This document shows, piece by piece, positions 13,083-54,316 of a DNA stretch of 64,000 nt. The stretch lies in the IMG/VR virus record IMGVR_UViG_3300037156_000269, positions 96,626 through 160,625 of that record; one strand, given 5' to 3'. The stretch's first letter is position 1. Each line of letters starts with the position of its first letter. This stretch comes from a virus (Duplodnaviria; Heunggongvirae; Uroviricota; Caudoviricetes). The notes beneath the pieces were generated by a model, which saw nothing but the letters and a program-made list of their open reading frames with translations, did no database searches and had not been told where the DNA came from. A program made the position numbers and the translations under genes.

Positions 13083-13086
13083 ACTA

Positions 13087-37726: not shown

Positions 37727-38290
37727 TTACTCGCGAAGGTCCGTGCCCAGATCTCTGAGGGCTAAAAACAACGCAGCGCACCCGACTTGGGTGTCCATAA
37801 AAGTGGGATCAAATTCCCCGTCACTCACGTACTTTCCGGGCACCTGGTGGTTGGTCAGGGACCAGAGATATGGAGACGGAAGTCCCATATGGTCGTAGCC
37901 AAAGCCGTTCCAAGAATCACATTTCAAAAGTGAGGTGACTAAATCCCACGAGGCTCCGAGCGGGAGCCTATCAAATCCACGAAGCTTGAGCGAGTCGATT
38001 GCTCCGTCGGTCCAGTTATTGAATGGCCCGCGCCCAGATGGAACGTGTGTCGTCACCACACCAAGCGGGTCGCCATTACCAAGATAACGATTGTGGTTGC
38101 AGCCCTCTTCTCTCATGTCGAGCGCCGCCACCACATACCACGGAATTCCAGTGATATTTTCCACAGGAAGATAAAATCCGAATTTATATCCGAGCGCGGC
38201 TCTGGCGGCCATCTGCGCCTCGCTCACGTGACGCGGCAAGACCTGACAACTTTGCCACATGGAGAGCACAGACTGCTTGTTGATAATCAT
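37727..38290 (-). CDS. hypothetical protein (possible cell-wall hydrolase-like)
   Basis: 187-aa ORF; weak resemblance only. Confidence 0.35.
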   Translation of the reverse strand: MIINKQSVLSMWQSCQVLPRHVSEAQMAARAALGYKFGFYLPVENITGIPWYVVAALDMREEGCNHNRYLGNGDPLGVVTTHVPSGRGPFNNWTDGAIDSLKLRGFDRLPLGASWDLVTSLLKCDSWNGFGYDHMGLPSPYLWSLTNHQVPGKYVSDGEFDPTFMDTQVGCAALFLALRDLGTDLRE

Positions 38291-39351
38291 AGTTTCAAAC
38301 CCTCGCGAGCGAATGGGGACTCGAAGAATCCTACATCATGCTCTCTATTGGGGTAGTCATTGATGAGCCGGACAAAGACCGAGTTGAGGTAGCCAGCGGT
38401 ACGGTCACAAAGTTCTCGGTAAGCCTGGTGTACAGCTATCGATTCAAACCCCCAGCCCTCTCTTACCCATAGAAGTTTTTCATAGAGCTCCATGGGCTCA
38501 GTCGCTGACGTGAGTTGAAGGTTGCTGAGTGTGTACTTATTACCCCCGGTCAGCAAAGGGTTTTTAGAGACCAACCCCGAAGACGACGGTGACGTAATCA
38601 CCGGAATCCCGCGCGCCCAAGCTTCTTGCACGGTGTTCGAATAACACTCCAGATGTGAGAGGTGAACAAGCACAGAGCAAGATCTGAGCATAGCGAGAAA
38701 AGCTTCTTGCGGCCGACTGTAGGCCGGTGACTCCACGACTTCTACGTTCTTGTGGTTGGCTGCAAAATCTCGCGCAATGATTTTCGGTCCTTCAGTATTT
38801 TTGTACCAATGGTCCGCGCCGAGAATACCGATTCTAAATGTAGCTGGAGGCACCACTTTCGTCTGTAAAGGAAACGCATGTGGCACCCACACAGCAAATG
38901 TCCTTCGGACTTTCTGGTAATATTCGGCCGTTTGCGGGTGAACAAACCCCATGAGATCGACGAGACCACGTTTGAATGCTGTCTCGAATTCCGGTTCTTG
39001 CCAGTCTTTGTGAAAATAAGATCCGTGAAACTGTGTGCTGTGACTAACATTGAGAATAGGGAACTCTTTATTCCCCGATCGCTTAAGCTCAGTCAAAAGC
39101 TCTATGTAGCCTTTGCTCCAGCCACCAACGACAAGAACATCAGGTCCTTTGTGAAAGATGGCACTCGCGAGTTGCTGCCACTCATGAGGTGAAGCCATGT
39201 GTGGAGCTGGTAGCCAGTCCGTGCAGATGGCTCTGGTGGCTACGGACACACCTAGAAAATCCGGGTTGGAGATGCCGAGGATTCTCATTTCTTCTCCATG
39301 AAGAGAGCCACGATCTTTCCGCCAAGCATGAGAGGAAGACTTAACGGCCAC
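38287..39351 (-). CDS. GT4-like (GT-B fold) glycosyltransferase
   Basis: C-terminal E-x7-E-type motif ECYSNTVQEAWARGIPVITS typical of retaining GT-B transferases. Confidence 0.6.
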   Translation of the reverse strand: MAVKSSSHAWRKDRGSLHGEEMRILGISNPDFLGVSVATRAICTDWLPAPHMASPHEWQQLASAIFHKGPDVLVVGGWSKGYIELLTELKRSGNKEFPILNVSHSTQFHGSYFHKDWQEPEFETAFKRGLVDLMGFVHPQTAEYYQKVRRTFAVWVPHAFPLQTKVVPPATFRIGILGADHWYKNTEGPKIIARDFAANHKNVEVVESPAYSRPQEAFLAMLRSCSVLVHLSHLECYSNTVQEAWARGIPVITSPSSSGLVSKNPLLTGGNKYTLSNLQLTSATEPMELYEKLLWVREGWGFESIAVHQAYRELCDRTAGYLNSVFVRLINDYPNREHDVGFFESPFAREGLKL

Positions 39352-39539
39352 AATAGTCCCGCCAGAACATTTGTGTGATCGTCCCTACCGCTCCCGTCGT
39401 TAAACAGTATTGTCAGTACGCCACCTGCCACCATTAAATAGAGAGCTGCGGGTAGTAGGAAGTATAATAAAAAATCCACTCTATCTCCTGTCTTCGTTCG
39501 ACCAAACCTCAATGCCGTCTTTAAACAAAGTGAAATCAT
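39285..39539 (-). CDS. small membrane protein
   Basis: Two TM helices. Confidence 0.35.
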   Translation of the reverse strand: MISLCLKTALRFGRTKTGDRVDFLLYFLLPAALYLMVAGGVLTILFNDGSGRDDHTNVLAGLLWPLSLPLMLGGKIVALFMEKK

Positions 39540-39757
39540 CGTACATTACATCTACGGGCTCAGCTCCAGCCATAAGCTTACCACCATCTTCTGTGTGGGC
39601 TCTCTTGCGTAAGCTGGCACGGCTGGGGTTGCCTTCTCGAAGGTATATTTCTATGACGGATCCTACCAACACGCCTTTTCTCTTAACGGTATACTGGTTG
39701 GCATTTGTTGACTCAGCAGAGAGATAAAAGAAACCTTCTATACCAAACAAATCCATG

Positions 39758-40720
39758 TCACATCCCTTCGTAAATATTAACAAACCTCTGAGTCATATCT
39801 TTCGGGTGCCAGTACTTCTCCATCCAAGATCTACTTGCTTCGGCTAACATCTTCACACCGCCTGGATCATAAACACAGCCCATGAGCCTGCGTTTTAAGG
39901 TTTCAGGTCTTGCGAGCGCCCAGGGGTGGAAGCCAGCCCCTGTCAAGTCCTTGATGGTTTTGATCTGTATCTCATCAAGCCCAGCAAATGTAAAGCATCC
40001 TTGTGAGAGTGACTCTAAACTAACTAAGTGATAAGATCCTGTGATGATTTCGTCAATGGATATGTTGCACTCACCTCTAAGACGCAAGCACTCTGCGTGC
40101 GGTCTGTCTTGAATAACAACGGCTGTGATGAGTTTAGCATCAACTAATGTTTGTAGGACTGGCAGGGTCTCTTTGAATCCCTTATCATCCCATCCCAAGA
40201 GTCCGATTCGAGAGGGGCTGTAAGCAATGCGGAGAGGTCCACTCCAAAGTCTCTCTTGAGGTCTAAGCAGAGGCTCTTCAATGTCGATGACGTTGGGTAC
40301 AATGGTGCACTCTGGCCATTCGCGCGGGTGGTACTGCCCGATGACGAGGTGCTTGGCCGCCTTATCGCGCAGACCTTCTTCAATATCCATCCATGCTGTG
40401 CTTCTCGGTGAGTGAACTTGCCAAACGCGAGGTTTTCGCAAACAGATTTGCCAGAGGTCAGGGTATTTCCTAAAGAGTTCTTGATTAGAGTAAAAGTTAT
40501 GGAAGTGGAAAATGTCGGCGTCTTCCATAATTTTTCTGATTTCGTCATAGCTGTGCACTCCGATAAGTAAATCTGATTTGTAAACTCGAGCTTCGTTACG
40601 GTCACTGGCCGCAATGTGTCGGCACCGGACCTTGTCACCCTGATATTTACTCAGAGCAAGCGCCAGGTTCATTGGGGCGCCGGCTATGGGATTTTCTGTA
40701 ATATGACAAACTCGTATCAT
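39758..40720 (-). CDS. putative GT-B-like glycosyltransferase
   Basis: 320 aa with Rossmann-like halves and SLESLSQGCFTFAG segment; weak. Confidence 0.4.
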   Translation of the reverse strand: MIRVCHITENPIAGAPMNLALALSKYQGDKVRCRHIAASDRNEARVYKSDLLIGVHSYDEIRKIMEDADIFHFHNFYSNQELFRKYPDLWQICLRKPRVWQVHSPRSTAWMDIEEGLRDKAAKHLVIGQYHPREWPECTIVPNVIDIEEPLLRPQERLWSGPLRIAYSPSRIGLLGWDDKGFKETLPVLQTLVDAKLITAVVIQDRPHAECLRLRGECNISIDEIITGSYHLVSLESLSQGCFTFAGLDEIQIKTIKDLTGAGFHPWALARPETLKRRLMGCVYDPGGVKMLAEASRSWMEKYWHPKDMTQRFVNIYEGM

Positions 40721-40980
40721 TGCGTTAGCGTCTCCGGAGGTTTCTGATCCTCTGTCGATTTCGCGATCAAACCCTTAAATGCCTCTGCTGTTTTTCGCAT
40801 AACGAAGCGAACGAGGGTGTCTTTTGGATTTTCGTGAAGGTACAGGAGCTCCTCGTCGGTCACGACAACGTCGATCTTGATTGCGAAGTTAGTGTTGGGG
40901 TCGATCGTGAGGGTGACTTTCTTAAATTCTTCTACTGGCGGTTCTTCTTTGACGGGGACCTCTGCTGTTTCGCTGGACAT
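40717..40980 (-). CDS. hypothetical protein
   Basis: 87-aa ORF. Confidence 0.4.
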   Translation of the reverse strand: MSSETAEVPVKEEPPVEEFKKVTLTIDPNTNFAIKIDVVVTDEELLYLHENPKDTLVRFVMRKTAEAFKGLIAKSTEDQKPPETLTQ

Positions 40981-41068
40981 GGGGGTTCTCCTTATTGTAT
41001 CGTTTTAAAACAGGTTGACATAATAGGCAAGAATTTCCTACCATTTAAAAAACTTTAAAGGGGGCCCT

Positions 41069-41455
41069 GTGAACGTAGCAGAAATCGCACGAATCGCGCA
41101 CCAGGTAAATAAGGGATATTGTGAGGCCATGGGTGACATGAGCCAAAAAGATTGGCACGTGGCCCCTGAGTGGCAGCGTGACTCTGCAATCAATGGTGTT
41201 GGTTTTATCATCTCCAATCCGACAGCAACTCCTAAAGAAGTCCATGAGGGTTGGAAGAAGCAGAAGATCGCTGAGGGCTGGACCTACGGACCAGTAAAGG
41301 ATGAGGCTAGAAAAGAGCATCACTGTATTGTAGAGGATTACAATATGCTCCCTCTAGCACAGCGCGTGAAAGATAATTTGTTTAGAACAGTTGTTCTGTC
41401 TTTATGTGAGCCAACAGCAAAGGAAGAAGATGTTGCCATACAGCCAGGAGTTTAA
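41069..41455 (+). CDS. hypothetical protein
   Basis: 128-aa ORF, first gene of the plus-strand block. Confidence 0.45.
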   Translation: MNVAEIARIAHQVNKGYCEAMGDMSQKDWHVAPEWQRDSAINGVGFIISNPTATPKEVHEGWKKQKIAEGWTYGPVKDEARKEHHCIVEDYNMLPLAQRVKDNLFRTVVLSLCEPTAKEEDVAIQPGV

Positions 41456-41630
41456 ATCTTTAAAGACTATAGAGGGTGACCATATAAGGTGCGTTTTGCG
41501 CAATTTTAAGGGCCATTTGACGAAAGCGGCAGGTGTTCTTGGCATTAGCCGCGCAACGCTCTATCGGAAACTACTCGTGCATGACTTGGTCGACCAGGTA
41601 AAAAAGTACAGAGAGTTTCGGGATCTATGA
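41391..41630 (+). CDS. Fis-family HTH DNA-binding protein
   Basis: C-terminal GHLTKAAGVLGISRATLYRKL matches the Fis/NtrC-type HTH. Confidence 0.55.
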   Translation: MFCLYVSQQQRKKMLPYSQEFKSLKTIEGDHIRCVLRNFKGHLTKAAGVLGISRATLYRKLLVHDLVDQVKKYREFRDL

Positions 41631-42301
41631 ATTGGTTCTCGAGCGATCATCACTTTTGGCACAGGAACGTGATCACCTATGAGAAGCGGCCTTATTCTTT
41701 ATCTGACGATGGCGTTCTTCAAATGAATGAGGACATGATTTCTAAGTGGAATGAAGTCGTTAAGCCAGACGATGTGGTCTACTATCTCGGGGATTTTTCG
41801 CTTTCTCATAGAGCGGCTGAAGTTTATACAGGTCGTCTCAACGGCTACAAGATTTTGATCCAGGGCAACCATGACTGGGGGCATCCGGCGCACAAGAAAT
41901 CACGCACGGTTGAGGGTCAGAACAAATGGCGGGCGAACTATCTGAAGTGGGGTTGGGATGAGATCCACACGGAGCTGGAGATTTTTATAGGCCCTGATGA
42001 TATCCGAGTACGGCTACATCACATGCCTTATTTAGATGAGAACGACCCGAACCAGAACCACAAAAAGTTCAGACTCAAAGACGACGGCGTTCCCCTTATT
42101 TGCGGGCACGTGCATAGTCGGTGGGCCAACCGCTTAAGTAAAAGGGCGACGCCTCAGGTGAATGTTGGTGTGGACGTTCGCGGCTTTTACCCTATTAACG
42201 AAGACAAAGTGATGGAGCTGTTCAAATATCTTGTGAGCCCTGAATACAATGGCCCGGAAGTAAAGAACTTAAATTTGACCGAGGAATCTAGTGGAGATTG
42301 A
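41627..42301 (+). CDS. calcineurin-like metallophosphoesterase
   Basis: Motifs DHHFWH, YYLGDFS, GNHDW, GHVH in phosphoesterase order. Confidence 0.7.
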   Translation: MNWFSSDHHFWHRNVITYEKRPYSLSDDGVLQMNEDMISKWNEVVKPDDVVYYLGDFSLSHRAAEVYTGRLNGYKILIQGNHDWGHPAHKKSRTVEGQNKWRANYLKWGWDEIHTELEIFIGPDDIRVRLHHMPYLDENDPNQNHKKFRLKDDGVPLICGHVHSRWANRLSKRATPQVNVGVDVRGFYPINEDKVMELFKYLVSPEYNGPEVKNLNLTEESSGD

Positions 42302-42779
42302 AATAAAGTGTCACAAGCAGGAAAATCTGCGGACTCGCTACAGGATCGAGTGGAAGCCGGCGGATCCACCGGTAGACGCCAATGGCCTTGAGGGTCGACC
42401 TTTCAGAACGTGCAGTTACTGCGGGTCTATGCACCCTGAGGATATGCTAGCGGCCTTGAGAGCAGGAGCCCAGCTTCAGGGATCGGACTGGAAGCACGGC
42501 TGGCCGAATAAGCTCTATGTTTTTGACATACCGAATCCTGCGACAGGAACTCCTGCGATCGTGAGCCACACAAAGCGCATGAAGAATGGCGAGTGGTTTA
42601 ACGAGCCTGTTTGGGGTGAGGTTGGCAAAACAACCCACGGCAGGTGGTATAACAGGCATTTCTTTGATCTCAGTCCAGAGGATTTCGAAGAGATCACAGA
42701 TGAGATTCACAAACAAATCGGCTTGAGATTTGTGCTCGATGACGATGGGCTTTATTTTTTAGTTGAGGGGGAGAAGTGA
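42291..42779 (+). CDS. hypothetical protein
   Basis: 162-aa ORF, overlap-coupled. Confidence 0.45.
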   Translation: MEIEIKCHKQENLRTRYRIEWKPADPPVDANGLEGRPFRTCSYCGSMHPEDMLAALRAGAQLQGSDWKHGWPNKLYVFDIPNPATGTPAIVSHTKRMKNGEWFNEPVWGEVGKTTHGRWYNRHFFDLSPEDFEEITDEIHKQIGLRFVLDDDGLYFLVEGEK

Positions 42780-43741
42780 TCGCTTTAGTTTTAAGCTCAG
42801 CGTGGTCAAGATATTATGCGTCGTCTCCATTCAACAATCTTTTAAATTCAAGTCACCCTAAATTTCTTGTCGCAGCAGTACTCCCTCACGAAACTACGAA
42901 CGAGGTTTTTAGAGCGGCCGTAAATGATTGCTCTGCCCTCATTGTCGACGACGTGCTGGCACCGCACATGGATTTTTATACGAATGGCCCGAAGCTCATG
43001 ATTGGCGGGGACCCACACGCGCACGACATGAAAAAGGTCGAGCAGCTCGAGCGTGAGTATGCTTCTGTTGACTACGTGCTCACGGGAGCGGTGTTCTCTA
43101 AAAAGCTATCCCCTCCTTATTTTTATCCAAAAGAAGAGACGCGCGCGAAGCACGTTTATTTCCCGCATAGCGTGCCTGATCAAATGCCTGTAGGCTTGCC
43201 GTGGGCGCAGCGCAACACAATAGCGCTCCTGTCAGGAAGTGTTTCGCAAGATGTCTATCCGTTCAGATGGCAGTGCCGCGAGATCGCACGCCGAGGCGGA
43301 CAAATTGAGTTGCTAGATCTAAACAACTTCCAGCACGCGGCGTACTTCGAACATCTTGGCAAATACAAAGCCGCTATCACTTGCCCATCTGTTTTTGAGT
43401 ACATGGTGGCGAAGTATGTGGAGATTCCTTGGACGGGCACTGTGCTTATCGCTCCTAAAGTTTGCAAAGAAGAGTCGGAGCTTATGGGGTTTGAGCACAG
43501 TAAAAACGTGATCTGGACAGATCATGCCCATAGCGTTTCTCGAGCCGTAGAAGTTGCGCTCACTCAGGGCGAGAACGTAGCGAGAGCCGGAGCCGAACTT
43601 ATGCAAAAGAGCCACACCGCGAGCCGGAGACTTGACTACGTTGTTCGTTTAGTGGAGCGTATTAAACAAGGCAGCTTTGTACCGGAAGACGCGAAGGATA
43701 TTTTTCTGAAAGATCGTAAGGGGGAGCACACGGATGTTTGA
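42776..43741 (+). CDS. hypothetical protein
   Basis: 321-aa ORF, overlap-coupled to the acyltransferase gene. Confidence 0.5.
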   Translation: MIALVLSSAWSRYYASSPFNNLLNSSHPKFLVAAVLPHETTNEVFRAAVNDCSALIVDDVLAPHMDFYTNGPKLMIGGDPHAHDMKKVEQLEREYASVDYVLTGAVFSKKLSPPYFYPKEETRAKHVYFPHSVPDQMPVGLPWAQRNTIALLSGSVSQDVYPFRWQCREIARRGGQIELLDLNNFQHAAYFEHLGKYKAAITCPSVFEYMVAKYVEIPWTGTVLIAPKVCKEESELMGFEHSKNVIWTDHAHSVSRAVEVALTQGENVARAGAELMQKSHTASRRLDYVVRLVERIKQGSFVPEDAKDIFLKDRKGEHTDV

Positions 43742-44390
43742 TGATTATGAAAAGACCCGCTATCCAGGAAATATAATTCATCCGACTGCTATTATAGATT
43801 CAAGCTGCATTATGGGTACGGAGAACTTCATCGGCCCGCACACAGTAATAGGTCAGGGCGTGCGGATTGGAAATCGTAACCGAATTGAGGGCTTCGCCTC
43901 GATCGGATCTCCGGCCGAGCACCAGCGCTATTTCATTCCCGACGATGCCGAGAGACCTACGATAATTGGGCATGACTGTGTTATAAGAGAGTTTACAACA
44001 ATCAACGCGCCAACAACGGGCGAGACGCGGATGGGCAATGGCTGCGTCATGCTTCGCGGCTCGCACCTCTCTCATGATTCAGTTTTGGGAGACAAGGTGA
44101 ATCTGAGCTGTGGGGTTCTCTTAGGCGGACATTCGCACGTCATGAGTTGGGCAACTTTAGGTCTTGGTGCGATCACGCACCAATTTTCGGTTATCGGAGC
44201 GGCAGCTTTTCTCGGCATGGGCACGATCGTAACTAAGAAGTCGGTCATTCGGCCGGGCGAGAAGTACGTGGGAAACCCAGCGAGGCACATCGGTCATAAT
44301 GCCATTGGGGTAGAGAAGGCTTGTTCTGCCGGATTTAACATGGCCGATGCTGATGCTGAGTTCTGGAGACTAAAGGAAACGAAGTCATGA
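43734..44390 (+). CDS. LpxA-like left-handed beta-helix (hexapeptide-repeat) acyltransferase
   Basis: IHPTAIIDSSCIMGTENFIGPHTVIGQGVRIG ... FASIG ... hexapeptide repeats aligning with the UDP-GlcNAc acyltransferase LpxA N-terminus. Confidence 0.7.
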   Translation: MFDDYEKTRYPGNIIHPTAIIDSSCIMGTENFIGPHTVIGQGVRIGNRNRIEGFASIGSPAEHQRYFIPDDAERPTIIGHDCVIREFTTINAPTTGETRMGNGCVMLRGSHLSHDSVLGDKVNLSCGVLLGGHSHVMSWATLGLGAITHQFSVIGAAAFLGMGTIVTKKSVIRPGEKYVGNPARHIGHNAIGVEKACSAGFNMADADAEFWRLKETKS

Positions 44391-44626
44391 GGCGCTTTGA
44401 TAGATTTTTAATCGGTATAGATAATGCCTTTGAGAGCGGGCTCGGGCAGATAACTGTCTATTTCCTCGGACTAATCATCATGGGTCACGTTATAAAGTCG
44501 AACGGAGTGGACACAGTCGACGCCGCTGTCTGCGCAGTGCTGTGGCCTGTTATTTTGTTTTTCTGGCTTGTCTGGAAATTGGTGTGTGCTCTGGTATCTG
44601 TCGCGGTCTTCTTGGCCACGTTCTAA
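44387..44626 (+). CDS. small membrane protein
   Basis: Two TM helices. Confidence 0.4.
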   Translation: MRRFDRFLIGIDNAFESGLGQITVYFLGLIIMGHVIKSNGVDTVDAAVCAVLWPVILFFWLVWKLVCALVSVAVFLATF

Positions 44627-44674
44627 ACAAAAACCTGGTCTAGTGCGCCATTGCGTCACCATTTATAATGGGCG

Positions 44675-45244
44675 ATGCTGTTTATTATTCTCCTGACGAT
44701 TTTCTTTAATCATACCAAGGTGCAGGTCTCGGAAGCGGCTGAGATACCGGTCCCGACAAAAGAGCTTGCCGGGTACTTGTCTACTTTCGTGAGGGAATCG
44801 CGCGGGGTCGTTAAGCTCAGGGACCTGACTGATTCGGAATATGTTTTTAAGAGGCTCGCATGGGAACCGGGCGACGGCGGGACGATCGCTGACTGTGTGG
44901 CTCCTCCGCATGCCTTGCCTTTTGTGATTCACTTGGACTCACGCTACTGGAAAAAATCAACTAGGCAGACACGCGAGGCCATCATGTTTCATGAGCTGGG
45001 GCACTGCGCTTGTGGCCGAGATCACACTTACGCGAAGAGTTCTAAGTGGCTTATCGAGCTCCTCGAGCGCGTGGGGTTCCACGTGGAACATGCGCATAAG
45101 CTGCTGGACGGCTGCCCCGACTCGGTTATGAACTGGACGGTACCGAAGGGCGGATGCTGGATGGCGCACCGCGATTGGTACATGAAAGAGCTTTTTAGGA
45201 AGTGCACACCGTCGGTGAGGGAGATTCCTGAGGATGACCGCTAG
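44675..45244 (+). CDS. putative zinc metallopeptidase (HExxH)
   Basis: N-terminal hydrophobic segment then FHELGHCACGRDH. Confidence 0.5.
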   Translation: MLFIILLTIFFNHTKVQVSEAAEIPVPTKELAGYLSTFVRESRGVVKLRDLTDSEYVFKRLAWEPGDGGTIADCVAPPHALPFVIHLDSRYWKKSTRQTREAIMFHELGHCACGRDHTYAKSSKWLIELLERVGFHVEHAHKLLDGCPDSVMNWTVPKGGCWMAHRDWYMKELFRKCTPSVREIPEDDR

Positions 45245-45281
45245 TAGTAAAAACTCCAGTTTTGGTCACCAATCGCAATCT

Positions 45282-45331
45282 TGTTTTTAACCACAAAACC
45301 CTATAGTGACTGTTTTTTAACCACAAAACCC
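45282..45331 (+). repeat. tandem direct repeat TGTTTTT(T)AACCACAAAACCC x2 (about 29-30 bp period)
   Basis: Two near-identical 20/21-nt copies at 45282-45301 and 45311-45331, in the intergenic space upstream of the 45490 gene. Confidence 0.5.
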
Positions 45332-45489
45332 GGTGTCCGGCGATGAACGTGGGGCATGGGAAGTTTCCGAAATTATTCAGGTCCGACACCGATAATTTCT
45401 GCTTTTTTACATAATTTGTTTTATGATTAGCAGACCAAACGTCCTTAACAATGCGGGCCCGGACGTGCCGCCTAAAAATGGGAGTGTCT

Positions 45490-46380
45490 ATGAGCGCTTG
45501 GGAAAAAGGCTTTGTTGCCGTCATTCTAGATTCAAACGGAAAACCAATCAGAGAATTCAACGAGGGTGAAAACCGTACGGTTCGCGTGCCGTTCGATTCA
45601 GAATATATTTTGAGGTTTAAGAACACCACCGACGCGCGCGCCTACGTCCGCATCGAGATCGACGGGATGGACGTGCTTGGCGGGAAAAGGCTGATTCTTC
45701 CGGCCAAAACCACAAAGGACCTCGAGCGCTTTTTAGAGGGCGATAACACCAAAGGCCGAAAGTTCAAGTTTGTCACCGCGGGCGGTCCTGGCATTACCGA
45801 TCCGACGTCGGCCGAGAACGGTCTTATCCGTGTGATCTTCGAGCCCGAGTCTGTTGTGACCACACTGCTCATGACCACCGGCAGTCTCGGTGTCACGGCT
45901 CCATGCATGTCGTCTGGTATCCTTAGAGGCGGCAGCGATCTAGTCAACACAGGCATTCTGGGCTCTGTTATAGGCACAGCCTATAACTGCAGCGAGGCGT
46001 CTATCTCTTCAGCCGTTAACACAGGGGCTATTCAGCCGACAACAACGACCAACATGTGCTTGGACAGGGATGGGAATAGCCACAAGAAAATGGCCCGCCG
46101 TACGGACATCGGCGCGACATCCACCGGATCTGCAAGCGGTCAACGGTTCACAGATTCGAATGAGTGGTTTCCGACTCTAGCCCCGATTCAGATTGATATC
46201 TGGATGCGCGGCCCGAAGGTAGTTGATGAACCTAAGCCGTTCATCTGCTACCCAGCCTTTCAGCCAGCGAGCGGCGGGATTTTCTACAAAGGCGAAGTAA
46301 TGCAAGGCGTTAAAGAGTTCTCTTTTTCGGGTGGGGAAGTCATTTTGAAGCTGGATCCGGCTCAGATCACTTTTAAATAA
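45490..46380 (+). CDS. hypothetical protein
   Basis: Start MSAWEK with GGGAG RBS (track ORF begins at 45451). Confidence 0.5.
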   Translation: MSAWEKGFVAVILDSNGKPIREFNEGENRTVRVPFDSEYILRFKNTTDARAYVRIEIDGMDVLGGKRLILPAKTTKDLERFLEGDNTKGRKFKFVTAGGPGITDPTSAENGLIRVIFEPESVVTTLLMTTGSLGVTAPCMSSGILRGGSDLVNTGILGSVIGTAYNCSEASISSAVNTGAIQPTTTTNMCLDRDGNSHKKMARRTDIGATSTGSASGQRFTDSNEWFPTLAPIQIDIWMRGPKVVDEPKPFICYPAFQPASGGIFYKGEVMQGVKEFSFSGGEVILKLDPAQITFK

Positions 46381-46443
46381 AAACACTAGGACCCGACCCT
46401 AACATGACTGATTGACGCGCATGGACTAGGATAGACTTAGTCC

Positions 46444-47004
46444 ATGCGAAAATCCAAAGTTCCCTTCGAGAGAGACAAGGCAGAGGCCGCCGGCGAGGTG
46501 GATTTTTTCTCATGCTACGTGATGGGCGAGCTTTGGAGATACGGAGTTGTCACCGCGGCTCAGATGAAGATTCTGGGGGCTGAGACTGACCCAGACGCGC
46601 ACGGGCTGTGTGATGGGGTATCGAACATCATTTATATTTTAGAGGGCCGTGTGAGGCATCCCGTGGTGATCCACGAGCTCTGTCACGCGCACATGTACCA
46701 GAGTCAGACCCAGTCGGCGAAGCTCTCGGCCGACCAGGTAGAAGAAATCATGTGCGACATTTTCGCGTACAACTGGAGCCGCATTCTTCTTCTCTCGCGC
46801 ACAATAGTGCACAACCTCTCTTGCTATGGTCAGTACCTGAAGGGTGAGAAGAAGCAGCCATGGGAAAGCTGTCTTCCGGATATGATCAATGAGGAACTCC
46901 CGAATAATCTGGTGGAGCTTGTTGCAACTTATGCAACAGGTGGGGAGCAGAACCCGCTTCTTAAATGTGCGATAGGTAAAAAGAAGCGCAGGCGGCGCTC
47001 CTAA
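46444..47004 (+). CDS. SprT-like/HExxH metallopeptidase-like protein
   Basis: VIHELCHAHMY motif; Lys/Arg-rich C-terminus. Confidence 0.45.
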   Translation: MRKSKVPFERDKAEAAGEVDFFSCYVMGELWRYGVVTAAQMKILGAETDPDAHGLCDGVSNIIYILEGRVRHPVVIHELCHAHMYQSQTQSAKLSADQVEEIMCDIFAYNWSRILLLSRTIVHNLSCYGQYLKGEKKQPWESCLPDMINEELPNNLVELVATYATGGEQNPLLKCAIGKKKRRRRS

Positions 47005-47484
47005 GTTTGCTTACATTGTATGTGCGCCTCGCCCGGGCGACACTCGAGTGTCTTGCTGCTTACAGTGTAAGCAGCTTCAAGTTTTCCAATACTCTTTTTG
47101 CCAGGGCCAATAGTCCAGATCCCAGACGGAGATATACTCCTCACGACGCCCTGTCGCTAACCAAATAAGGATAGGGATGTAGATAATAATCATGCCTATC
47201 ACCGCAATGGCTTGAACAAGAACTCCGAGAATGATTCTCAGCACGCGCAATTTACTCACAGTACCCGCCCATCATTTCGTTTCGGAGAGCTTCCCAGTAA
47301 TCCAGATTCTTATCCGGCTTTGGAAAATTGGCGAACCCCTTGGCTTTGCCAATAGCGGCATTCGTGCACGATTCTTTCGAGAGATAGTCGCCGAGGCGCT
47401 TGCCTCTGGCGTCTGTGAGGTCCCAAAAACCGTCGGGCCGCTCTTCGCCGAAGTACTCGACAGGCCATCTTGTTAGGCGGATTT

Positions 47485-48853: not shown

Positions 48854-49242
48854 TCTGTGTCATGCCCGCGCTCATCTGTTTTACGTCCAGAATCTCCCAT
48901 GTCACAGCCCATGCAGGCGCAGCCTCGATATGGGTCATTCGGGTCATTTTTGTTAAACCAATGAACGACACACTTTTGAATGGCTTCTCTCAGACGTCCG
49001 TTTTCTTTAAGAACTCTAGCTAGGTCGCCAGGACTGGGTTCCGCAACATTCGCTGCCGCTACGCCATCAAGATTCATAAAGGCGTTTAGCAAATTGTTTT
49101 TCATACCGGCTTCCGTAATCGAACCTTTTGCATTTGGCAGTGGGCGTATCCACCATGCTCTGATGCCAAAAGCAAATTTTGGAATGTTCATTTTTACTCT
49201 CCTTTGCTCTGCTCTGCGATCGGCGCATGCCAGTGTCTCCAC
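48793..49242 (-). CDS. hypothetical Cys-containing protein
   Basis: 149-aa ORF. Confidence 0.4.
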   Translation of the reverse strand: METLACADRRAEQRRVKMNIPKFAFGIRAWWIRPLPNAKGSITEAGMKNNLLNAFMNLDGVAAANVAEPSPGDLARVLKENGRLREAIQKCVVHWFNKNDPNDPYRGCACMGCDMGDSGRKTDERGHDTDCVMSILGYALKPQLQEESE

Positions 49243-49350
49243 CAGTATTTTATTTTCAATCCAACTTCTTTCGCCTTCATCGCGGCTTTGTGTTTCCCGA
49301 GCCTTTGCCGTTTCCGCGCAAAGTGAGACCGGCGTCTGTTCGCACCGTGG

Positions 49351-49758
49351 TCAGCCACCCTCCACTGCCCTGGCAACCTGTCGTGTCGCCCACGCGTGCA
49401 TGTGCTGCCAACGGGCCTCTGGAGTCGGGCCGCCATTCTCGTCGTTCTCCCATTCAATTTCTTGAATGAGTTGATGAGCCACATTAAACATATCGCCAAG
49501 CAGCTTGTGGTCGTAGGGGTCGACGTCTTTTAGGTCCGCTCCTCTCGCAAGACCGACGGCACCTAGAGTACAGACCTGCCCATCCTCAATCAGCTCATGT
49601 GGGATGAGTTTCTTTTCTGGCATAGCCTCTAGGGCCTGCACAAGCTCTTTTAGAAAGGCTTGCCCGCGCTTCCCGCGGATGGCGCTAGCGACCTGCCCCC
49701 GCCACCTGATGTTGGCCCACTGATCGTCACAATCGTCTGAGTAACCGTGTCTGCCCAT
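49351..49758 (-). CDS. hypothetical protein
   Basis: 135-aa ORF. Confidence 0.4.
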   Translation of the reverse strand: MGRHGYSDDCDDQWANIRWRGQVASAIRGKRGQAFLKELVQALEAMPEKKLIPHELIEDGQVCTLGAVGLARGADLKDVDPYDHKLLGDMFNVAHQLIQEIEWENDENGGPTPEARWQHMHAWATRQVARAVEGG

Positions 49759-49782
49759 TACGTGTCTCCATTAAATTAGTTG

Positions 49783-50322
49783 CTACTTTGTTTTTATAGC
49801 AAAGTGTTTTGAAATTGTATCGTGCGCCGCTTGATAAATATCGCTTGGAACAGCTTCACAAAATTCGAATTTCCAAAGTTCAATCTCCTTTTTTAGCTGC
49901 TTGTTTTCATTTATCAAAAAAGCAACTTGTTCTCCTAATTCTCCAAGCCCGTGCGTCATGTCATTATCATGCTGGTGCTCCAGCCTCCTCACTTCCTCAT
50001 CGCGATCTTTTAGACCAAGTTCATATGCCTCGCGCTGAGTGGCCGCAATGTTCACGTGGCCGCAAACTGAGCCCGGAGGAAATTTTAAATATGCTTTTTC
50101 CCGATGTGTGGCTGTATTAGCGCACGGTGCGGCCGGAAGAACTTCGCGAAAATGCACTTTATCGCCGATATTCATTTCTAAAGTATCGAGATCTGTTTTT
50201 TCTTGGATAGTTCCGCTTGAATCTCGATAGATGGTTAATTCTCGCGGTCGCTTGCTGGCGGATTGTGCCTGCGTGGTCATGTTTTCTCCTCGGCTAAAAT
50301 ATCCGCGACCGGAACAAAACAT
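49783..50322 (-). CDS. hypothetical protein
   Basis: 179-aa ORF. Confidence 0.4.
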   Translation of the reverse strand: MFCSGRGYFSRGENMTTQAQSASKRPRELTIYRDSSGTIQEKTDLDTLEMNIGDKVHFREVLPAAPCANTATHREKAYLKFPPGSVCGHVNIAATQREAYELGLKDRDEEVRRLEHQHDNDMTHGLGELGEQVAFLINENKQLKKEIELWKFEFCEAVPSDIYQAAHDTISKHFAIKTK

Positions 50323-50510
50323 CGGTGATAGGCAGCGCTCGCCCGCGACTCATCGAAAGCTTCGCAGAACTTGTTTTGGCATTTCCACCAATGCTTGTTG
50401 GACGGAACTTTCGGAACATTGCAAATGTCGCAGCACTCGATCGTAAAGGCGCGAACGGTTCCGCATCGATTGTGGTCTAGATCGTTGTCGGCTCTGGTAT
50501 GAGTGTTCAT
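50277..50510 (-). CDS. small Cys-rich protein
   Basis: 77 aa with CGTVRAFTIECCDIC ... C ... C. Confidence 0.35.
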   Translation of the reverse strand: MNTHTRADNDLDHNRCGTVRAFTIECCDICNVPKVPSNKHWWKCQNKFCEAFDESRASAAYHRCFVPVADILAEEKT

Positions 50511-50676
50511 AGTTTGTGCTCCATTGCCTCTATGGTGGCCTGAAATATCAGGGCGCGATTAAATTGTATGTAACAGGTCTTGTCGCTTTCCCATTCGCTC
50601 AGAACAGAACGAAGAGCCTCCGTCTCCTGCTGAAGTAAATAGATAAGAGCGAGAAGAAATCGCTCACGCTCGGTCG

Positions 50677-50934
50677 TCATTCGCCCTCACTTGTCGTCGT
50701 GGCTTCAGGTGCCTCGGAGTTTCGCGGAGCCAACTGTCCACATGGCCCGTCTGGACATCTTTTCCGTATTTCGATTAGAGCATTCCTTTGTGTTTCAATT
50801 TCGGTTTCGAGCGAAACAAGAAGTTCCCATAATTGCTCAGGACCCTGAGGACCGAAATTTAGATCAGTGGTGACGTGGCGGCCGGTTACGCGGTCGTGAA
50901 TAGTTTCGTGATCAATGAAAAATCTTTTGCTCAT
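50677..50934 (-). CDS. hypothetical protein
   Basis: 85 aa; start preceded by the CCAAAAGCAAAGGGG motif. Confidence 0.4.
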   Translation of the reverse strand: MSKRFFIDHETIHDRVTGRHVTTDLNFGPQGPEQLWELLVSLETEIETQRNALIEIRKRCPDGPCGQLAPRNSEAPEATTTSEGE

Positions 50935-51266
50935 TCTCGCCCCTTTGCTTTTGGAGTCACGCGCGTTAATTTTTCAAATGAAACCGGAATGACTGTGAGA
51001 ATCAGACAAAGGGACTCAATAGATGGCGTGCGTTCGCCGTTAACTATCTGAGAGATTCCAGCTTGAGTTATTCCACACCGTTCCGCTAAGTCTGCTTGAG
51101 ACATGCCCATTGTTTTCATCAAAGCTTTAAGCCTCATTCCGATTAAAGTCGGATTGTATATGGGGTTCACCTGGACTCCTTTTGTGCTTGGAAAGCAAGA
51201 CGTCGCTCTTGCTGAATTTTGAGAGCCTTGCTTGCTCCTGCGCGCAGCAAATGAATTTCGCTGCAA
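50931..51266 (-). CDS. XRE-family HTH regulator (paralogue of 26936-27136)
   Basis: MSQADLAERCGITQAGISQIVNGERTPS; C-terminal TPKAKG tail. Confidence 0.55.
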   Translation of the reverse strand: MQRNSFAARRSKQGSQNSARATSCFPSTKGVQVNPIYNPTLIGMRLKALMKTMGMSQADLAERCGITQAGISQIVNGERTPSIESLCLILTVIPVSFEKLTRVTPKAKGRE

Positions 51267-51478
51267 TGCTCACACACTCCATAAGAGTCGCACGGCGAAA
51301 CGCCACACTCGGCTAGACATTGAAGCTCAAGCTTTGTTCTTGCCCAATCTTCAACGGCATCAACAATTTCAGCTCGCTCTGTTTCGTCTGTCGTCATCTT
51401 TACCTTTCGCGCACAAGGCCGCGTTAGCTCGCGGGCTTGTGCGGTCGTTAAAATGAGTTTCGTTTTCTGGGCGCCCAT
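51167..51478 (-). CDS. hypothetical protein (start ambiguous: 51478 or 51397)
   Basis: Two candidate starts, each preceded by one of the repeated leader motifs. Confidence 0.35.
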   Translation of the reverse strand: MGAQKTKLILTTAQARELTRPCARKVKMTTDETERAEIVDAVEDWARTKLELQCLAECGVSPCDSYGVCEHCSEIHLLRAGASKALKIQQERRLAFQAQKESR

Positions 51479-51906
51479 TATTCGAGGCCCTTTGCTTTTG
51501 GAGTCTGCGCTGCCTTCAGAGCAAGCCATGCGGCATCGACAGCGCCGTTGGTTATCTGTCTATTTTCATAGTCCAGGCGTGAGTCCTTCCATGACGGCTC
51601 AGAAATGTGGGCTAGCAGATTCTCAAGTGCCGCCCGAAGCCTCTCAATCTCAGCATCGCGCTTTGCAAGTTCTTCAGCCCTGACTTTCATTCCTGCGCCG
51701 GATAGCTCTAGGCGCTTCACTTCCGCATCAAACGCAAAAAGCAATGGCTCAACATCTTCGCAGGCGAAGAATTGACCTTCTGGACGCTGATACATGCCGC
51801 CGATCATGTAATCGTATTTCTTAAGTGTAAGTTTTGCTTTAGTCATTTGCTGGACTCCTTGGTAGCTTGGAAAGCCAATAGTCGGCCACCATCTAAAATT
51901 TTCCAC
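51478..51906 (-). CDS. hypothetical coiled-coil protein (C-terminal PKAKG tail)
   Basis: 142-aa ORF. Confidence 0.4.
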   Translation of the reverse strand: MENFRWWPTIGFPSYQGVQQMTKAKLTLKKYDYMIGGMYQRPEGQFFACEDVEPLLFAFDAEVKRLELSGAGMKVRAEELAKRDAEIERLRAALENLLAHISEPSWKDSRLDYENRQITNGAVDAAWLALKAAQTPKAKGLE

Positions 51907-52067
51907 ATAGAACGATAAGAAGCCAGTCTGCCTCGACCGTAATCATTTAGGCCGCCGCCTTCCGATAGATCGCGGTCGTGTTCCTCCTGAATCTTTTCAA
52001 GCCTGCTTATTTCTTCGTGAACATGATTTACCATTTTTGCTATCAGCTCATCTTTTAGGTCCGCCAT
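51843..52067 (-). CDS. hypothetical protein
   Basis: 74 aa; start preceded by exact 23-nt motif CTTGTGCGCGAAAGGTAAAGATG. Confidence 0.4.
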   Translation of the reverse strand: MADLKDELIAKMVNHVHEEISRLEKIQEEHDRDLSEGGGLNDYGRGRLASYRSMWKILDGGRLLAFQATKESSK

Positions 52068-52098
52068 CTTTACCTTTCGCGCACAAGACCATTGGGTT

Positions 52099-52334
52099 TC
52101 ACGAGGCCAACGCGGCCTGTACTGTACCTATCGACATCCCGATCTCTTTTGCTATTTTCCGAATCGAATAACCCCTGGCTCGCAATGCACGTATTTTTTT
52201 ATCATCGCGAACCTTTGGACGGCCAATCGCTTCGCCAGCGGCAGCCTTCTTTTTATTTGCCAGCTTCAGTCGAACTGATTTCAATTCTGAAAGAAGTTCC
52301 CTCTCACGCTTCCAAAGTTTTTCAATTTCAGTCA
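52099..52334 (-). CDS. small HTH DNA-binding protein
   Basis: C-terminal RARGYSIRKIAKEIGMSIGTVQAAL HTH; start MTEIEK at 52334 preceded by the 23-nt motif. Confidence 0.45.
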
Positions 52335-52337
52335 TCT

Positions 52338-52859: not shown

Positions 52860-53126
52860 TCAGAATCGCGAGGCCACATGCCGGTCGAAAAGCTCGAAAG
52901 CTAAAAACTGTCTCGCGCCTTCGTGTATTTTTATTTCATGGGCAACCTCAAGCGCGTCCAGCGCGTCCCAAAGTTCTTTTCGCTTGTCTAACATTTCGCC
53001 TGGCAGGACTTCGCGAACGAAAACAGGCGGCTCACCTAGAAACCGAGCTTTCACATTTTTCAGCATAGTGTCTGATGCGAGCGTTAGTTTTCCCGTTTTG
53101 TAAATCCACCATTCTCTTGGCTTCAT
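52860..53126 (-). CDS. hypothetical protein
   Basis: 88-aa ORF. Confidence 0.4.
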   Translation of the reverse strand: MKPREWWIYKTGKLTLASDTMLKNVKARFLGEPPVFVREVLPGEMLDKRKELWDALDALEVAHEIKIHEGARQFLAFELFDRHVASRF

Positions 53127-53748: not shown

Positions 53749-53789
53749 ATTCGCTCCTATCGATCGGTTGCTTCAATGGCATACGATGC

Positions 53790-54062: not shown

Positions 54063-54097
54063 CTAGACCCCACTCAGACACTGGCCAACAAAGGCCG

Positions 54098-54310: not shown

Positions 54311-54316
54311 CGTTGT

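Follow-up and report, generated by a model that had tools for sequence, protein, structure and literature searches.

What would a large phage do with glycosyltransferases encoded alongside a protein whose nearest cellular relative is LpxA, an enzyme of lipid A synthesis? The question is raised by one region of the window, the 64,000-nt stretch of DNA analyzed here, which comes from an uncultured large phage with a genome of ~175 kb. A sequence-only reading had proposed that glycan-modifying genes lie here together with one for an LpxA-like left-handed beta-helix (LbH) transferase, and such a set is present. It is real and conserved in related phages, and it is best explained as a cytoplasmic glycosylation module of this lineage. 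Its LbH protein is predicted to tailor a sugar, and phage DNA is tentatively favored as the acceptor.

Layout and Conservation of the Region

The gene coordinates below hold predicted open reading frames. Relatives are represented by three related contigs of ~95-176 kb (L012, L014, and L017).

37727-38290, minus: 187-aa protein without a family match; 4-nt overlap between its start and the GT_A stop
38287-39351, minus: GT_A, putative divergent GT4-like glycosyltransferase (EX7E; sub-threshold Pfam)
39285-39539, minus: 84-aa protein with two hydrophobic segments (phrog_4955/11608), lineage-specific
39758-40720, minus: GT_B, 320-aa predicted GT-B fold glycosyltransferase (AlphaFold model)
40717-40980, minus: acidic protein of 87 aa, whose gene opens the leftward unit and shares 4 nt with the start of GT_B
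40981-41068, no strand: divergent intergenic region, promoter-like sites on both strands (consensus match)
41069-41455, plus: RyR-domain protein (PF02026, E 3e-9; phrog_5154, E 1e-41)
41391-41630, plus: Fis-type HTH_8 DNA-binding protein (E 8e-11; public gene call begins at 41430)
41627-42301, plus: calcineurin-like metallophosphoesterase (phrog_547, E 2e-37; Metallophos_2, E 1.8e-3)
42291-42779, plus: 162-aa CxxC protein, no Pfam, PHROG, or NCBIfam assignment, not conserved in relatives
42776-43741, plus: GT_C, 321-aa predicted GT-B fold glycosyltransferase (Glyco_trans_1_2 family; E208-x7-E216)
43734-44390, plus: LbH transferase, 218 aa, truncated, LpxA-derived (Hexapep, E 1.6e-13)
44387-44626, plus: 79-aa protein with three hydrophobic segments, lineage-specific
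44675-45244, plus: HELGH phage metallopeptidase-like protein (PhageMetallopep PF18894, E 9e-6)
45451-46380, plus: 309-aa protein, conserved N-terminal domain, Ser/Thr/Gly-rich middle, without Pfam match
46444-47004, plus: HELCH SprT/DA1-like protein (weak matches), last gene of the plus block, orthologue in L012
47055-47075, plus: hairpin with a 9-bp stem, then TTCAAGTTTT; terminator-like, in the convergent gap at the end of the plus unit

The plus block (41069-47004) comprises 10 genes, here and in public gene calls, instead of the eleven counted before. Its described contents were otherwise recovered: the HTH_8 protein, the calcineurin-like phosphoesterase (DxH, GD, and GNHD motifs seen in the sequence; 39-48% identity to the orthologues in L012, L014, and L017), the LbH protein, two HExxH proteins, and, as the small membrane proteins, two with 2 and 3 hydrophobic segments. 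The inverted orientation also holds. All other genes lie on the opposite strand according to independent gene calls on overlapping contigs, and the sign of the GC skew flips only across 40-47 kb. A promoter-like site on the plus strand (TTGACA-18-TACCAT, 41015-41044; a consensus match only, with counts in the region not above those of shuffles), five start/stop overlaps in a row (4-11 nt), and the hairpin give the block the look of a transcription unit of its own with tightly coupled genes, in keeping with the independent regulation that had been suggested.

The suggestion of recent horizontal acquisition fared differently. Neither in GC content nor in tetranucleotide use does 38-47 kb stand out from the window (z -0.96 to -0.15). 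The divergent arrangement of the genes for GT_A, GT_B, GT_C, the phosphoesterase, the LbH protein, and the 309-aa protein recurs in all three related contigs, down to the overlap of the GT_C stop with the LbH start (8 nt here), which couples these two genes translationally. The 187-aa protein has no orthologue in these contigs. In one more distant relative (L020), GT_B is followed by a second GT4-like protein and an Acb3 anti-CBASS homologue, and the plus block is not next to it; the block would thus be at most an old addition. Judged by composition and gene order, the module is not a recently acquired island.

Three Unrelated Glycosyltransferases

The two minus-strand genes had been called GT-B-type glycosyltransferases, an assignment that is borne out to different degrees. 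GT_A is a putative glycosyltransferase on the basis of its EX7E motif (LECYSNTVQEAW, E235-x7-E243) and matches to Glycos_transf_1, Glyco_trans_1_4, and GT4-conflict in Pfam (E 3e-5 to 2e-4), all under gathering cut-offs. Alignment with three orthologues (44-46% identity) places its likely true start at M22, position 39288, which forms an ATGA overlap with the gene for the 84-aa protein. GT_B matches nothing in Pfam, PHROG, or NCBIfam, and its 80 homologues form an unannotated, phage-only family in which no member carries a Pfam domain. Its AlphaFold model (pLDDT 95.8) has a GT-B fold whose neighbors are GT4 enzymes and T4 DNA alpha-glucosyltransferase; the T4 enzyme is the top structural match, tied with BshA, and a profile match to PglA has E 3.5e-4. 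No gene of the region is better conserved than GT_B, which is 66% identical to its L014 orthologue versus 53% for the primase.

A third GT-B glycosyltransferase, GT_C, had gone unrecognized. It was modeled at pLDDT 93.1, PF13524 is matched by 18 of the 22 members of its family, and its fold matches include TreT, a glycosyltransferase of phage HY126 (9iqz, rank 4), WbnH, SenB, and PglA. The confident AlphaFold models thus predict GT4-like GT-B folds for both GT_B and GT_C. For a further "DxD GT" that had been placed at 2768-3757, the WVDCDVHF motif is present but family or solved-structure support is not. The three enzymes of the module are mutually unrelated and not paralogues (hhalign E 0.001 to 0.14). 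GT_A and GT_B belong to the leftward unit and GT_C to the divergent rightward one. No transmembrane segment was found in the glycosyltransferases or the LbH protein, and all are predicted to be soluble.

An LpxA-Derived Transferase Predicted to Act on Nucleotide Sugars

The LbH protein derives from LpxA. Its best NCBIfam models are those of LpxA (NF003657 / TIGR01852; E 2e-37), and, counted from residue 15, it shares 32% identity with the LpxA of E. coli. In the alignment of the LbH protein with the E. coli enzyme, H122, H125, H144, and H160 pair with H111, H114, H133, and H149, and the catalytic His of the acyltransferase is present. The left-handed beta-helix, the His-Asp catalytic pair, H160-Q161, and the uridine-contacting Asn are common to both, and H114-D115, H149-Q150, and N189 are invariant in 35 LbH family members. 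The C-terminal helical domain, in contrast, has been lost: the chain stops ~29 residues past the helix, at 218 aa as opposed to ~260 aa in LpxA. A Met occupies the LpxA "ruler" position (M162), as in the C10-specific P. aeruginosa enzyme, and leaves room for a short-acyl donor, a point against the acetyltransferase prediction made below.

LpxA function itself was considered and rejected. The protein scores 128.6 and 109.9 bits against the LpxA models, about half of the curated equivalog cut-offs of 226 and 231. Its best solved relative is 8e62 (189 aa, E 4e-30), ahead of LpxA structures (E 1e-22) and of WlbB (3mqg), for which the match is marginal (E 1e-3). It belongs to a family of short proteins (205-235 aa), mostly viral or metagenomic, that adjoin glycosyltransferase genes in every context examined, often with WlbA-like and WlbC-like genes, and never fabZ, lpxB, or lpxD. 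LbH, GFO_IDH_MocA (GFO), and DegT genes are adjacent in L005-L009; L022 adds an epimerase, GT9, and GT1s to this trio; and in L108 the gene occurs with GFO, an ATP-grasp enzyme, PIG-L, and glycosyltransferases. It overlaps a GT2 gene in L029 and adjoins one in L001-4 and L023. For one bacterial member, the setting is an O-antigen-like cluster that also contains GFO, DegT, GT2, GT4, and Wzx. Among the best 80 bacterial matches, 78 are canonical fabZ-linked LpxA proteins of at least 254 aa and at most 41% identity, and the C-terminal domain is detected in most of these 78 loci but not in the short-family L028 and L029.

From sequence and gene context, namely a short family with glycosyltransferases as constant and WlbA-like and WlbC-like genes as frequent neighbors, we predict a nucleotide-sugar N-acetyltransferase instead of a lipid A enzyme. 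The short, all-LbH architecture is shared with 8e62 and with UDP-amino-sugar 3-N-acetyltransferases of the WlbB/WbpD type, which work with the WlbA oxidoreductase and the WlbC aminotransferase, and GFO_IDH_MocA and DegT genes are immediate neighbors of family members. Counting against this prediction, the similarity to WlbB is marginal, and the WlbA and WlbC partners, the GFO and DegT genes of the other loci, are absent from the window; an amino-sugar substrate would then have to be host-derived. The protein would use acetyl-CoA, not acyl-ACP, and would N-acetylate a UDP-amino sugar of the UDP-GlcNAc3N type or else acetylate the sugar of GT_C. A genuine viral LpxA, serving as an auxiliary metabolic gene to raise or redirect lipid A synthesis in the host, would account for the top-ranking models, the matches to LpxA structures, the conserved His-Asp pair, and the JGI annotation "UDP-N-acetylglucosamine acyltransferase", an automated name identical to that of viral "lpxA" auxiliary metabolic genes. 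With half-height scores, no C-terminal domain, and sugar-tailoring neighbors in place of lipid A genes, it is very improbable.

Candidate Acceptors

The module sits inside a replication and nucleotide-metabolism region (PurZ-like, HD, SbcC, C5-MTase, AEP primase, and SNF2 genes), and in distant phages GT_B homologues adjoin DNA polymerase A or primase-DUF932 genes. Both placements favor DNA, as do the second GT4-like gene and the Acb3 homologue that come next in L020, and the T4 enzyme and the HY126 glycosyltransferase among the fold matches of GT_B and GT_C. The DNA of phage HY126 contains arabinosylated 5-hydroxycytosine (PMC13326640), and its 9iqz glycosyltransferase presumably acts on DNA. 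Like the phage DNA glycosyltransferases (T4 alpha-GT of GT72 and the metavirome GT-B enzymes active on 5hmC/5hoC DNA), the window combines several glycosyltransferases with a replication module and a C5-MTase. Published phage enzymes of the GT-A and GT-B types, similar to BshA, MshA, and PglH, modify DNA, on which hexose, HexNAc, heptose, and Kdo are written as mono- to trisaccharides (bioRxiv 10.1101/2023.12.21.572611). Against DNA, identity to these enzymes is 11%, and no thymidylate-synthase-like hydroxylase/hydroxymethylase or TET/5mYOX was found in the 64-kb window or within ~10 kb of the module in related loci. The only candidate partner is the C5-MTase 14 kb away, and predicted pI values are neutral. 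The main texts of PMC13326640 and bioRxiv 10.1101/2023.12.21.572611 mention no LbH acetyltransferase, the word "acetyltransferase" being absent from both. Weighing these points, we infer that phage DNA is the single most likely acceptor, at appreciably less than an even chance, ahead of phage or host protein and then of host envelope glycolipid.

Cytoplasmic O-glycosylation of a phage protein (virion or other) or host protein, with the LbH enzyme tailoring an amino sugar, is unlikely, although soluble GT4-like enzymes without membrane machinery would suit it and the fold matches include the protein O-GlcNAc transferases GtfA and SdgB. It would parallel giant-virus fibril or mycobacteriophage virion glycosylation. 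LbH-bearing phage clusters, with GFO, DegT, epimerase, ATP-grasp, PIG-L, methyltransferase, and 4-5 glycosyltransferases, match the glycosylation islands of giant viruses or flagellin in complexity. Giant-virus and cyanophage glycan or "LPS" clusters are likewise large-virus sets of bacterial-type glycosyltransferases and sugar-tailoring enzymes, reportedly including LbH acetyltransferases according to a review of giant-virus glycans. The products of giant-virus clusters decorate capsid fibrils. Clusters of both kinds usually carry nucleotide-sugar synthesis genes, and there are none in this window. The Ser/Thr/Gly-rich segment of the 309-aa neighbor, which adjoins the module in relatives too, is a further point in favor. 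With 1784 representative clusters, the very large uncharacterized family of this neighbor is far broader than the glycosyltransferase families (80 and 21 proteins), which speaks against a dedicated partner, and the module lies in the replication region of a window with no structural genes. Modification of the host envelope, with LPS core, Und-PP-linked O-units, or capsule lipid anchors as the targets on the cytoplasmic side, is more doubtful again. The nearest cellular relatives of all four enzymes (LpxA, PglA, PimA, WbnH, and WaaG) serve envelope glycoconjugates, GT9 (heptosyltransferase family) and Capsule_synth (KpsS/C family) proteins occur in related phage clusters, the only clear bacterial member of the LbH family lies in the Wzx-containing cluster, and a membrane di-iron FA_hydroxylase (13357-13971) has an L012 homologue inside the plus block. 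Viral "lpxA" genes have been read as host envelope modification in viromics (PMC9529941). Against it, LPS-type folds have been repurposed for DNA elsewhere (bioRxiv 10.1101/2023.12.21.572611). The seroconversion that the earlier reading had envisaged gained no positive support. The phage-encoded GtrABC and Oac likewise glycosylate or acetylate host glycans, but they are membrane proteins, encoded by temperate phages, that work on the periplasmic side, whereas every enzyme here is soluble. No Gtr, Oac, or Acyl_transf_3 family member, Wzx flippase, Wzy polymerase, initiating transferase, integrase, or other lysogeny sign was found in the window, and a GT_B more conserved than the primase fits strain-variable surface acceptors poorly.

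A small molecule or other acceptor is about as improbable as the envelope or slightly more so. Still a shade less probable are unrelated accessory genes forming no single module, with small-molecule glycosyltransferases or an LbH protein that drains or blocks UDP-GlcNAc. The absence of paralogy, the split between opposite transcription units, GT_B without the block in L020, the compactness of GT_B and GT_C (~320 aa each), and resemblances to TreT, SenB, and BH4 glucosyltransferase (GT_C) and to BshA, MshA, and SPS (GT_B) all suit this explanation, and the RyR, HTH, phosphoesterase, and two HExxH proteins have no evident sugar link. Against it, the three glycosyltransferases and the LbH gene co-occur in conserved order in three of three close relatives, and the LbH family adjoins glycosyltransferases throughout.

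Were the envelope the acceptor, the surface would be altered during infection, with receptor masking or superinfection exclusion as the outcome. A glycosylation module with DNA as its likeliest acceptor is the explanation that we tentatively prefer overall, again at less than even odds. The three glycosyltransferases would draw on host nucleotide sugars, since the window encodes no genes for their synthesis, as well as on the tailored donor, and would assemble from them a short glycan of acetamido sugars. This glycan would be placed on the phage's own DNA after replication, as an anti-restriction hypermodification.

Gene Layout and Genomic Setting

The open reading frames listed in the sequence-only reading were confirmed at their coordinates, and the inverted block described there does lie on the plus strand, although ten genes were counted in it rather than the eleven claimed. 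According to public gene calls on overlapping contigs, all genes of the 64 kb outside this plus block are on the minus strand, and positive GC skew within the window is confined to 40-47 kb. A gap of 88 bp separates the plus block from a divergent leftward unit that carries the glycosyltransferases GT_A and GT_B; a third glycosyltransferase, GT_C, and a left-handed-beta-helix transferase (the LbH protein) are encoded in the plus block.

Genes of the module
40717-40980, minus: 87-aa acidic protein, first gene of the leftward unit
39758-40720, minus: GT_B, second in leftward transcription order
39285-39783, minus: poorly defined small-gene interval between GT_B and GT_A, including an 84-aa membrane protein with two segments
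38287-39351, minus: GT_A, after the small-gene interval
37727-38290, minus: 187-aa protein without assigned function, last of the leftward unit
41069 onward, plus, in order: RyR-domain protein; Fis-type HTH_8 protein; calcineurin-like phosphoesterase; 162-aa CxxC protein; 321-aa GT_C
Continuing to 47004, plus, in order: hexapeptide LbH protein; 79-aa three-segment membrane protein; HELGH "PhageMetallopep" protein; 309-aa protein; HELCH SprT/DA1-like protein

Alignment with three orthologues places the start of GT_A at M22 (position 39288). From the HTH gene through the 79-aa gene, consecutive plus-block genes overlap by 4-11 nt (in order ATGA, 11 nt, GTGA, ATGTTTGA, and ATGA). A promoter-like site (TTGACA-18-TACCAT, 41015-41044) and a 9-bp hairpin with a T-rich tail 3′ of the last plus-block gene (47055-47075) are used descriptively only because the counts in the promoter and terminator scan were not clearly above those of shuffled sequences. 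The small genes between the two leftward glycosyltransferases and both membrane proteins are not conserved among relatives and are therefore not regarded as core parts. The 309-aa protein (45451-46380, plus) has a conserved N-terminal domain of ~120 aa and a Ser/Thr/Gly-rich middle, with no Pfam or PHROG model and no solved relative. Its family spans 1784 representative clusters at E ≤ 1e-3 (593 at E ≤ 1e-10), in which a Pfam domain (VWA) was seen in a single distant member.

The window covers the region of replication and nucleotide metabolism in a large phage, and a contig of 175,117 bp encodes the identical LbH protein. Among sequenced phages, no close DNA relatives were found; the corresponding protein search gave no match for GT_C, a single 484-kb uncultured phage for GT_B, and only distant matches for the LbH protein.

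Other features of the window
166-1152, minus: HD-domain protein, in the same region as the PurZ-like gene
7420-7494, minus: tRNA with anticodon CTA (amber suppressor), labeled tRNA-Pyl by ARAGORN
8244-9476, minus: PurZ-like adenylosuccinate synthetase homologue (phrog_1211, E 4e-62)
12645-13169, minus: five-tRNA cluster (Asn, Ser, Ser, Leu, Leu), oriented like most genes; tRNA genes in the window number six
54317-55213, minus: C5-cytosine DNA methyltransferase (PF00145; phrog_363, E 6e-63), with HTH, DUF932, and HNH genes as neighbors
Within the window: SbcC-like ATPase; 1176-aa AEP-TOTE primase; SNF2 helicase

The PurZ-like and HD-domain genes suggest that adenine may be replaced by 2-aminoadenine (Z) in this genome, which would be unusual in a phage of ~175 kb. 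Recoding by the amber suppressor was considered as a cause of ORF errors and rejected: TAG terminates 17 of 128 greedy ORFs, and past the TAG that closes 44675-45244 come another two stops. Elsewhere in the window, a SET-domain protein (PF00856, 135 aa, about 21414-21821, minus) is encoded near an HU-like DNA-binding protein and a Band_7 protein. A membrane di-iron protein of the FA_hydroxylase family (13357-13971, minus) has three hydrophobic segments and four His motifs, and its homologue in the relative L012 (11294-11779) stands at the end of the inverted block. The sole tetranucleotide outlier of the window, 49000-56000 (z about 3), consists of numerous tiny minus-strand ORFs in series and contains no tandem repeats.

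Three Glycosyltransferases

The GT-B fold, with its two Rossmann-like domains, appears in the predicted models of GT_B and GT_C, and GT_A has partial Pfam matches only. GT_A matches Glycos_transf_1, Glyco_trans_1_4, and the GT4-conflict family, all below threshold (24.0 against a gathering cutoff of 26.4), and carries an EX7E motif (E235-x7-E243). GT_B keeps only the second Glu of this motif (G228...E236) and has no Pfam match to Glycos_transf_1 or Glyco_trans_1_2. The proposal of two GT-B-type glycosyltransferases agrees with the modeled fold of GT_B and, as a putative assignment, with the subthreshold matches and motif of GT_A. GT_C had been overlooked in that reading. It carries the motif as E208-x7-E216 and scores 16.2 in Pfam against a gathering cutoff of 25. 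Its family has 21 members, PF13524 was matched by 18 of the 22 proteins scanned, and the best Pfam value among the other members is E 6.8e-10. The GT_C model (pLDDT 93.1) is of the GT-B type and matches TreT, the phage HY126 glycosyltransferase, WbnH, SenB, and PglA. Curated GT1/GT4 Pfam membership fails on threshold, and the fold is present in the two models. The GT_B family comprises 80 proteins without a Pfam model; apart from the one 484-kb uncultured phage record, the phage contigs that encode them reach about 186 kb. BLASTP and hhalign comparisons ruled out that the three enzymes are paralogues. None of them has a hydrophobic segment, and genes for nucleotide-sugar synthesis, a flippase, a polymerase, or an initiating transferase are absent from the 64-kb window.

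A further "DxD glycosyltransferase" had been proposed at 2768-3757 (minus), an identity that lacks support: its WVDCDVHF motif comes without a family or solved-structure match. Pfam, PHROG, NCBIfam, and the PDB returned nothing, no relative was found in IMG/VR, and the one homologue, 35% identical, is annotated as hypothetical in the 349-kb Xanthomonas phage XaC1.

A Truncated Relative of LpxA

The LbH protein has a hexapeptide-repeat left-handed beta-helix (Hexapep E 1.6e-13, and a structure alignment to LpxA), and its top family matches are two LpxA equivalog models. It scores 128.6 bits against NF003657 (cutoff 226) and 109.9 bits against TIGR01852 (cutoff 231.05), below the cutoff in both cases. 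From residue 15, it is 32% identical to E. coli LpxA; LpxA H122, H125-D126, H144, and H160 correspond to H111, H114-D115, H133, and H149. The catalytic His on which the acyltransferase assignment depended is thus present as H114-D115, and H114, D115, H149, Q150, and N189 are invariant in 35 members of the short family, the truncated LpxA-derived relatives of this protein. Because the LbH protein ends about 29 residues past the helix, the ~70-residue C-terminal alpha-helical domain of LpxA is missing, and PF13720, the model of that domain, has no match in it. A query with the E. coli C-terminal domain matched most of 78 canonical loci and left the short-family loci unmatched. The fabZ-lpxA-lpxB context was not found in the window or in short-family loci, where glycosyltransferases occur instead. 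Assignment of the protein to LpxA itself fails on three features: the equivalog cutoffs, the C-terminal domain, and the gene context. The phosphoesterase, tried as an LpxH-like partner, was dropped when NCBIfam gave no match at all.

The closest solved relative of the LbH protein is a 189-aa protein (PDB 8e62, E 4e-30), for which full-text search found no paper; the WlbB literature gave no answer either. The NeuD/PglB/VioB subfamily model scores 88.9 bits (cutoff 160.8), and the WlbB structure 3mqg matches at E 1.1e-3. The LbH protein has no hydrophobic segments. Some LpxA enzymes naturally N-acylate UDP-GlcNAc3N. With M162 of the LbH protein at the LpxA "ruler" position, a short acyl donor would still be possible. 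We infer that this protein is an LpxA derivative that would have kept the UDP-sugar pocket, lost the domain tied to a long-acyl/ACP enzyme, and become an acetyltransferase acting on a UDP-amino sugar or else on the sugar of a neighboring glycosyltransferase.

The short family has at least 256 members, those listed being mostly 205-235 aa and many lying on contigs of 50-260 kb. When a profile was run against 185,579 species genomes, the matches were almost exclusively canonical LpxA: of the best 80 loci, which were inspected, 78 had proteins of at least 254 aa, fabZ upstream and/or the C-terminal domain, and identity of at most 41%. Only two were short-family members. The neighbors of the short family are largely sugar genes.

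Gene neighborhoods of short-family members
L005-L009: LbH-GFO_IDH_MocA-DegT
L015, L016, L028: GFO_IDH_MocA and DegT genes adjoin LbH
L022: GT9, several GT1s, LbH, GFO, DegT, epimerase
L108: GT1, methyltransferase, GT2, LbH, GFO (without DegT), ATP-grasp, PIG-L, GT2
L001-L004, L023: LbH-GT2
Burkholderiales chromosome: overlapping LbH and GT2 genes
Bdellovibrionales MAG: O-antigen-like cluster with GFO, DegT, GT2, GT4, Wzx

An oxidoreductase-aminotransferase-LbH triad corresponds to the WlbA/WlbC/WlbB pathway, whose products are 2,3-diacetamido sugars. The WlbA-like (GFO_IDH_MocA) and WlbC-like (DegT) partners are absent from the window. The module enzymes would probably work like GT4 glycosyltransferases together with a WlbB-type acetyltransferase. 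In many Acidobacteriota, Planctomycetota, and deltaproteobacterial genomes (L030-L107), GFO_IDH_MocA directly follows canonical lpxA, where it is presumably a GnnA-type enzyme supplying UDP-GlcNAc3N for lipid A; this adjacency shows a close link between LpxA and the 3-amino-sugar pathway in bacteria.

An Old Core Gene with a Later Addition

The suggested horizontal acquisition, taken as a recent event, is rejected on a composition typical of the window and on synteny in relatives. In 6-kb windows over 38-47 kb, GC content and tetranucleotide distance are unremarkable (z −0.96 to −0.15). GT_A, GT_B, the phosphoesterase, GT_C, the LbH protein, the 309-aa protein, and a metallopeptidase-like protein all recur in three close relatives, L012 (95 kb), L014 (175.8 kb), and L017 (175.2 kb), which share the divergent orientation and the overlapping GT_C/LbH junction. 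Between the window and L014, identity is 66% for GT_B, 53% for the primase, and 42% for DUF932. In the more distant L020, GT_B (51% identity, against 38% for the primase) directly follows DUF932 and is itself followed by a second weak GT4-like gene and then, two genes downstream of GT_B, by a homologue of the anti-CBASS protein Acb3 (12347-13423, PF25187, E 3e-43), of which the window has none. Within 10 kb, L020 has no GT_A, GT_C, LbH protein, or phosphoesterase. More distant GT_B paralogues adjoin DNA polymerase A, and one of these loci also encodes a 648-aa GT4 and a KpsS/C-type protein. This pattern of conservation and synteny places GT_B among the old core genes of the replication region and makes the plus block an older addition common to one clade rather than a recent import. 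That such a core gene changes more slowly than the primase implies that its acceptor is important and conserved.

The Acceptor

The acceptor itself is left undecided by the sequence. Phage DNA ranks first, with a chance that we place somewhat short of even. The module lies in the replication region, as do distant GT_B homologues, GT_B is strongly conserved, and an anti-defense gene sits near it in L020. The fold matches include T4 alpha-GT for GT_B and the phage HY126 glycosyltransferase for GT_C. Counting against DNA, BshA ties with T4 alpha-GT, which is 11% identical. In published work, GT-A and GT-B enzymes of phages, similar to BshA, MshA, and PglH, put hexose, HexNAc, heptose, and Kdo glycans on 5hmC in DNA (bioRxiv 10.1101/2023.12.21.572611), and arabinose on 5hoC has been published for phage DNA (PMC13326640). 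Writing of such glycans (heptose, Kdo, etc.) on DNA would account for the GT9 and KpsS/C-type genes of related clusters. The C5-methyltransferase of the window also favors DNA and might open an MT-TET-GT pathway, for which no TET-like gene was found in the window. Against DNA, neither a ThyS-like enzyme nor a 5mYOX was found in these 64 kb of a ~175-kb genome, nor was either seen in eight related loci over some 10 kb around the module. Extension beyond the window through an HD-protein relative led into a different phage lineage, where no thymidylate-synthase homologue was visible. Charge and pI were uninformative as a hint of DNA binding.

Glycosylation of protein, consistent with soluble enzymes and with the complexity of related clusters, is the next candidate and rather unlikely, at roughly one chance among several. 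Modification of the host envelope is more doubtful still: where the enzymes come from and the presence of the membrane FA_hydroxylase speak for it, but the usual membrane machinery is missing and the conservation of GT_B is a poor fit. In its seroconversion form, as originally proposed, it finds no backing, since GtrA, GtrB, GtrV, and Acyl_transf_3 have no Pfam match and the glycosyltransferases and LbH protein have no hydrophobic segments; GtrABC and Oac systems, in contrast, consist of membrane-embedded proteins. Other acceptors together have a small chance. If protein were the acceptor, the module would be a rare instance of phage-encoded protein glycosylation.

Implications

Multi-glycosyltransferase sugar clusters in large phages are a known kind of system. 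Our searches turned up no earlier description of the GT_B and GT_C families or of the short LpxA-derived clade in phages. Short-family proteins are named "UDP-N-acetylglucosamine acyltransferase" in public data, and viral "lpxA" genes are tallied in viromics surveys among the auxiliary genes for lipid A (PMC9529941). Gene content and neighborhood point to the short family as a sugar-tailoring enzyme of phage glycosylation clusters, in which case such counts may mislead. The significance rises sharply if the acceptor is DNA, above all Z-DNA: the module would write a new glycan hypermodification, possibly atop a Z-genome, which would matter for the evasion of restriction and CRISPR and for enzymatic DNA-labeling tools. 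The most specific version, in which an acetamido-sugar glycan is put on the DNA of a jumbo phage with a PurZ-like gene and without a recognizable hydroxymethyl- or hydroxy-pyrimidine synthase, is a long shot. If true, it would mean new hypermodification chemistry, perhaps even a new base as acceptor, with a truncated LpxA recruited for tailoring of the DNA glycan and GT_B as founder of a new family of DNA glycosyltransferases.
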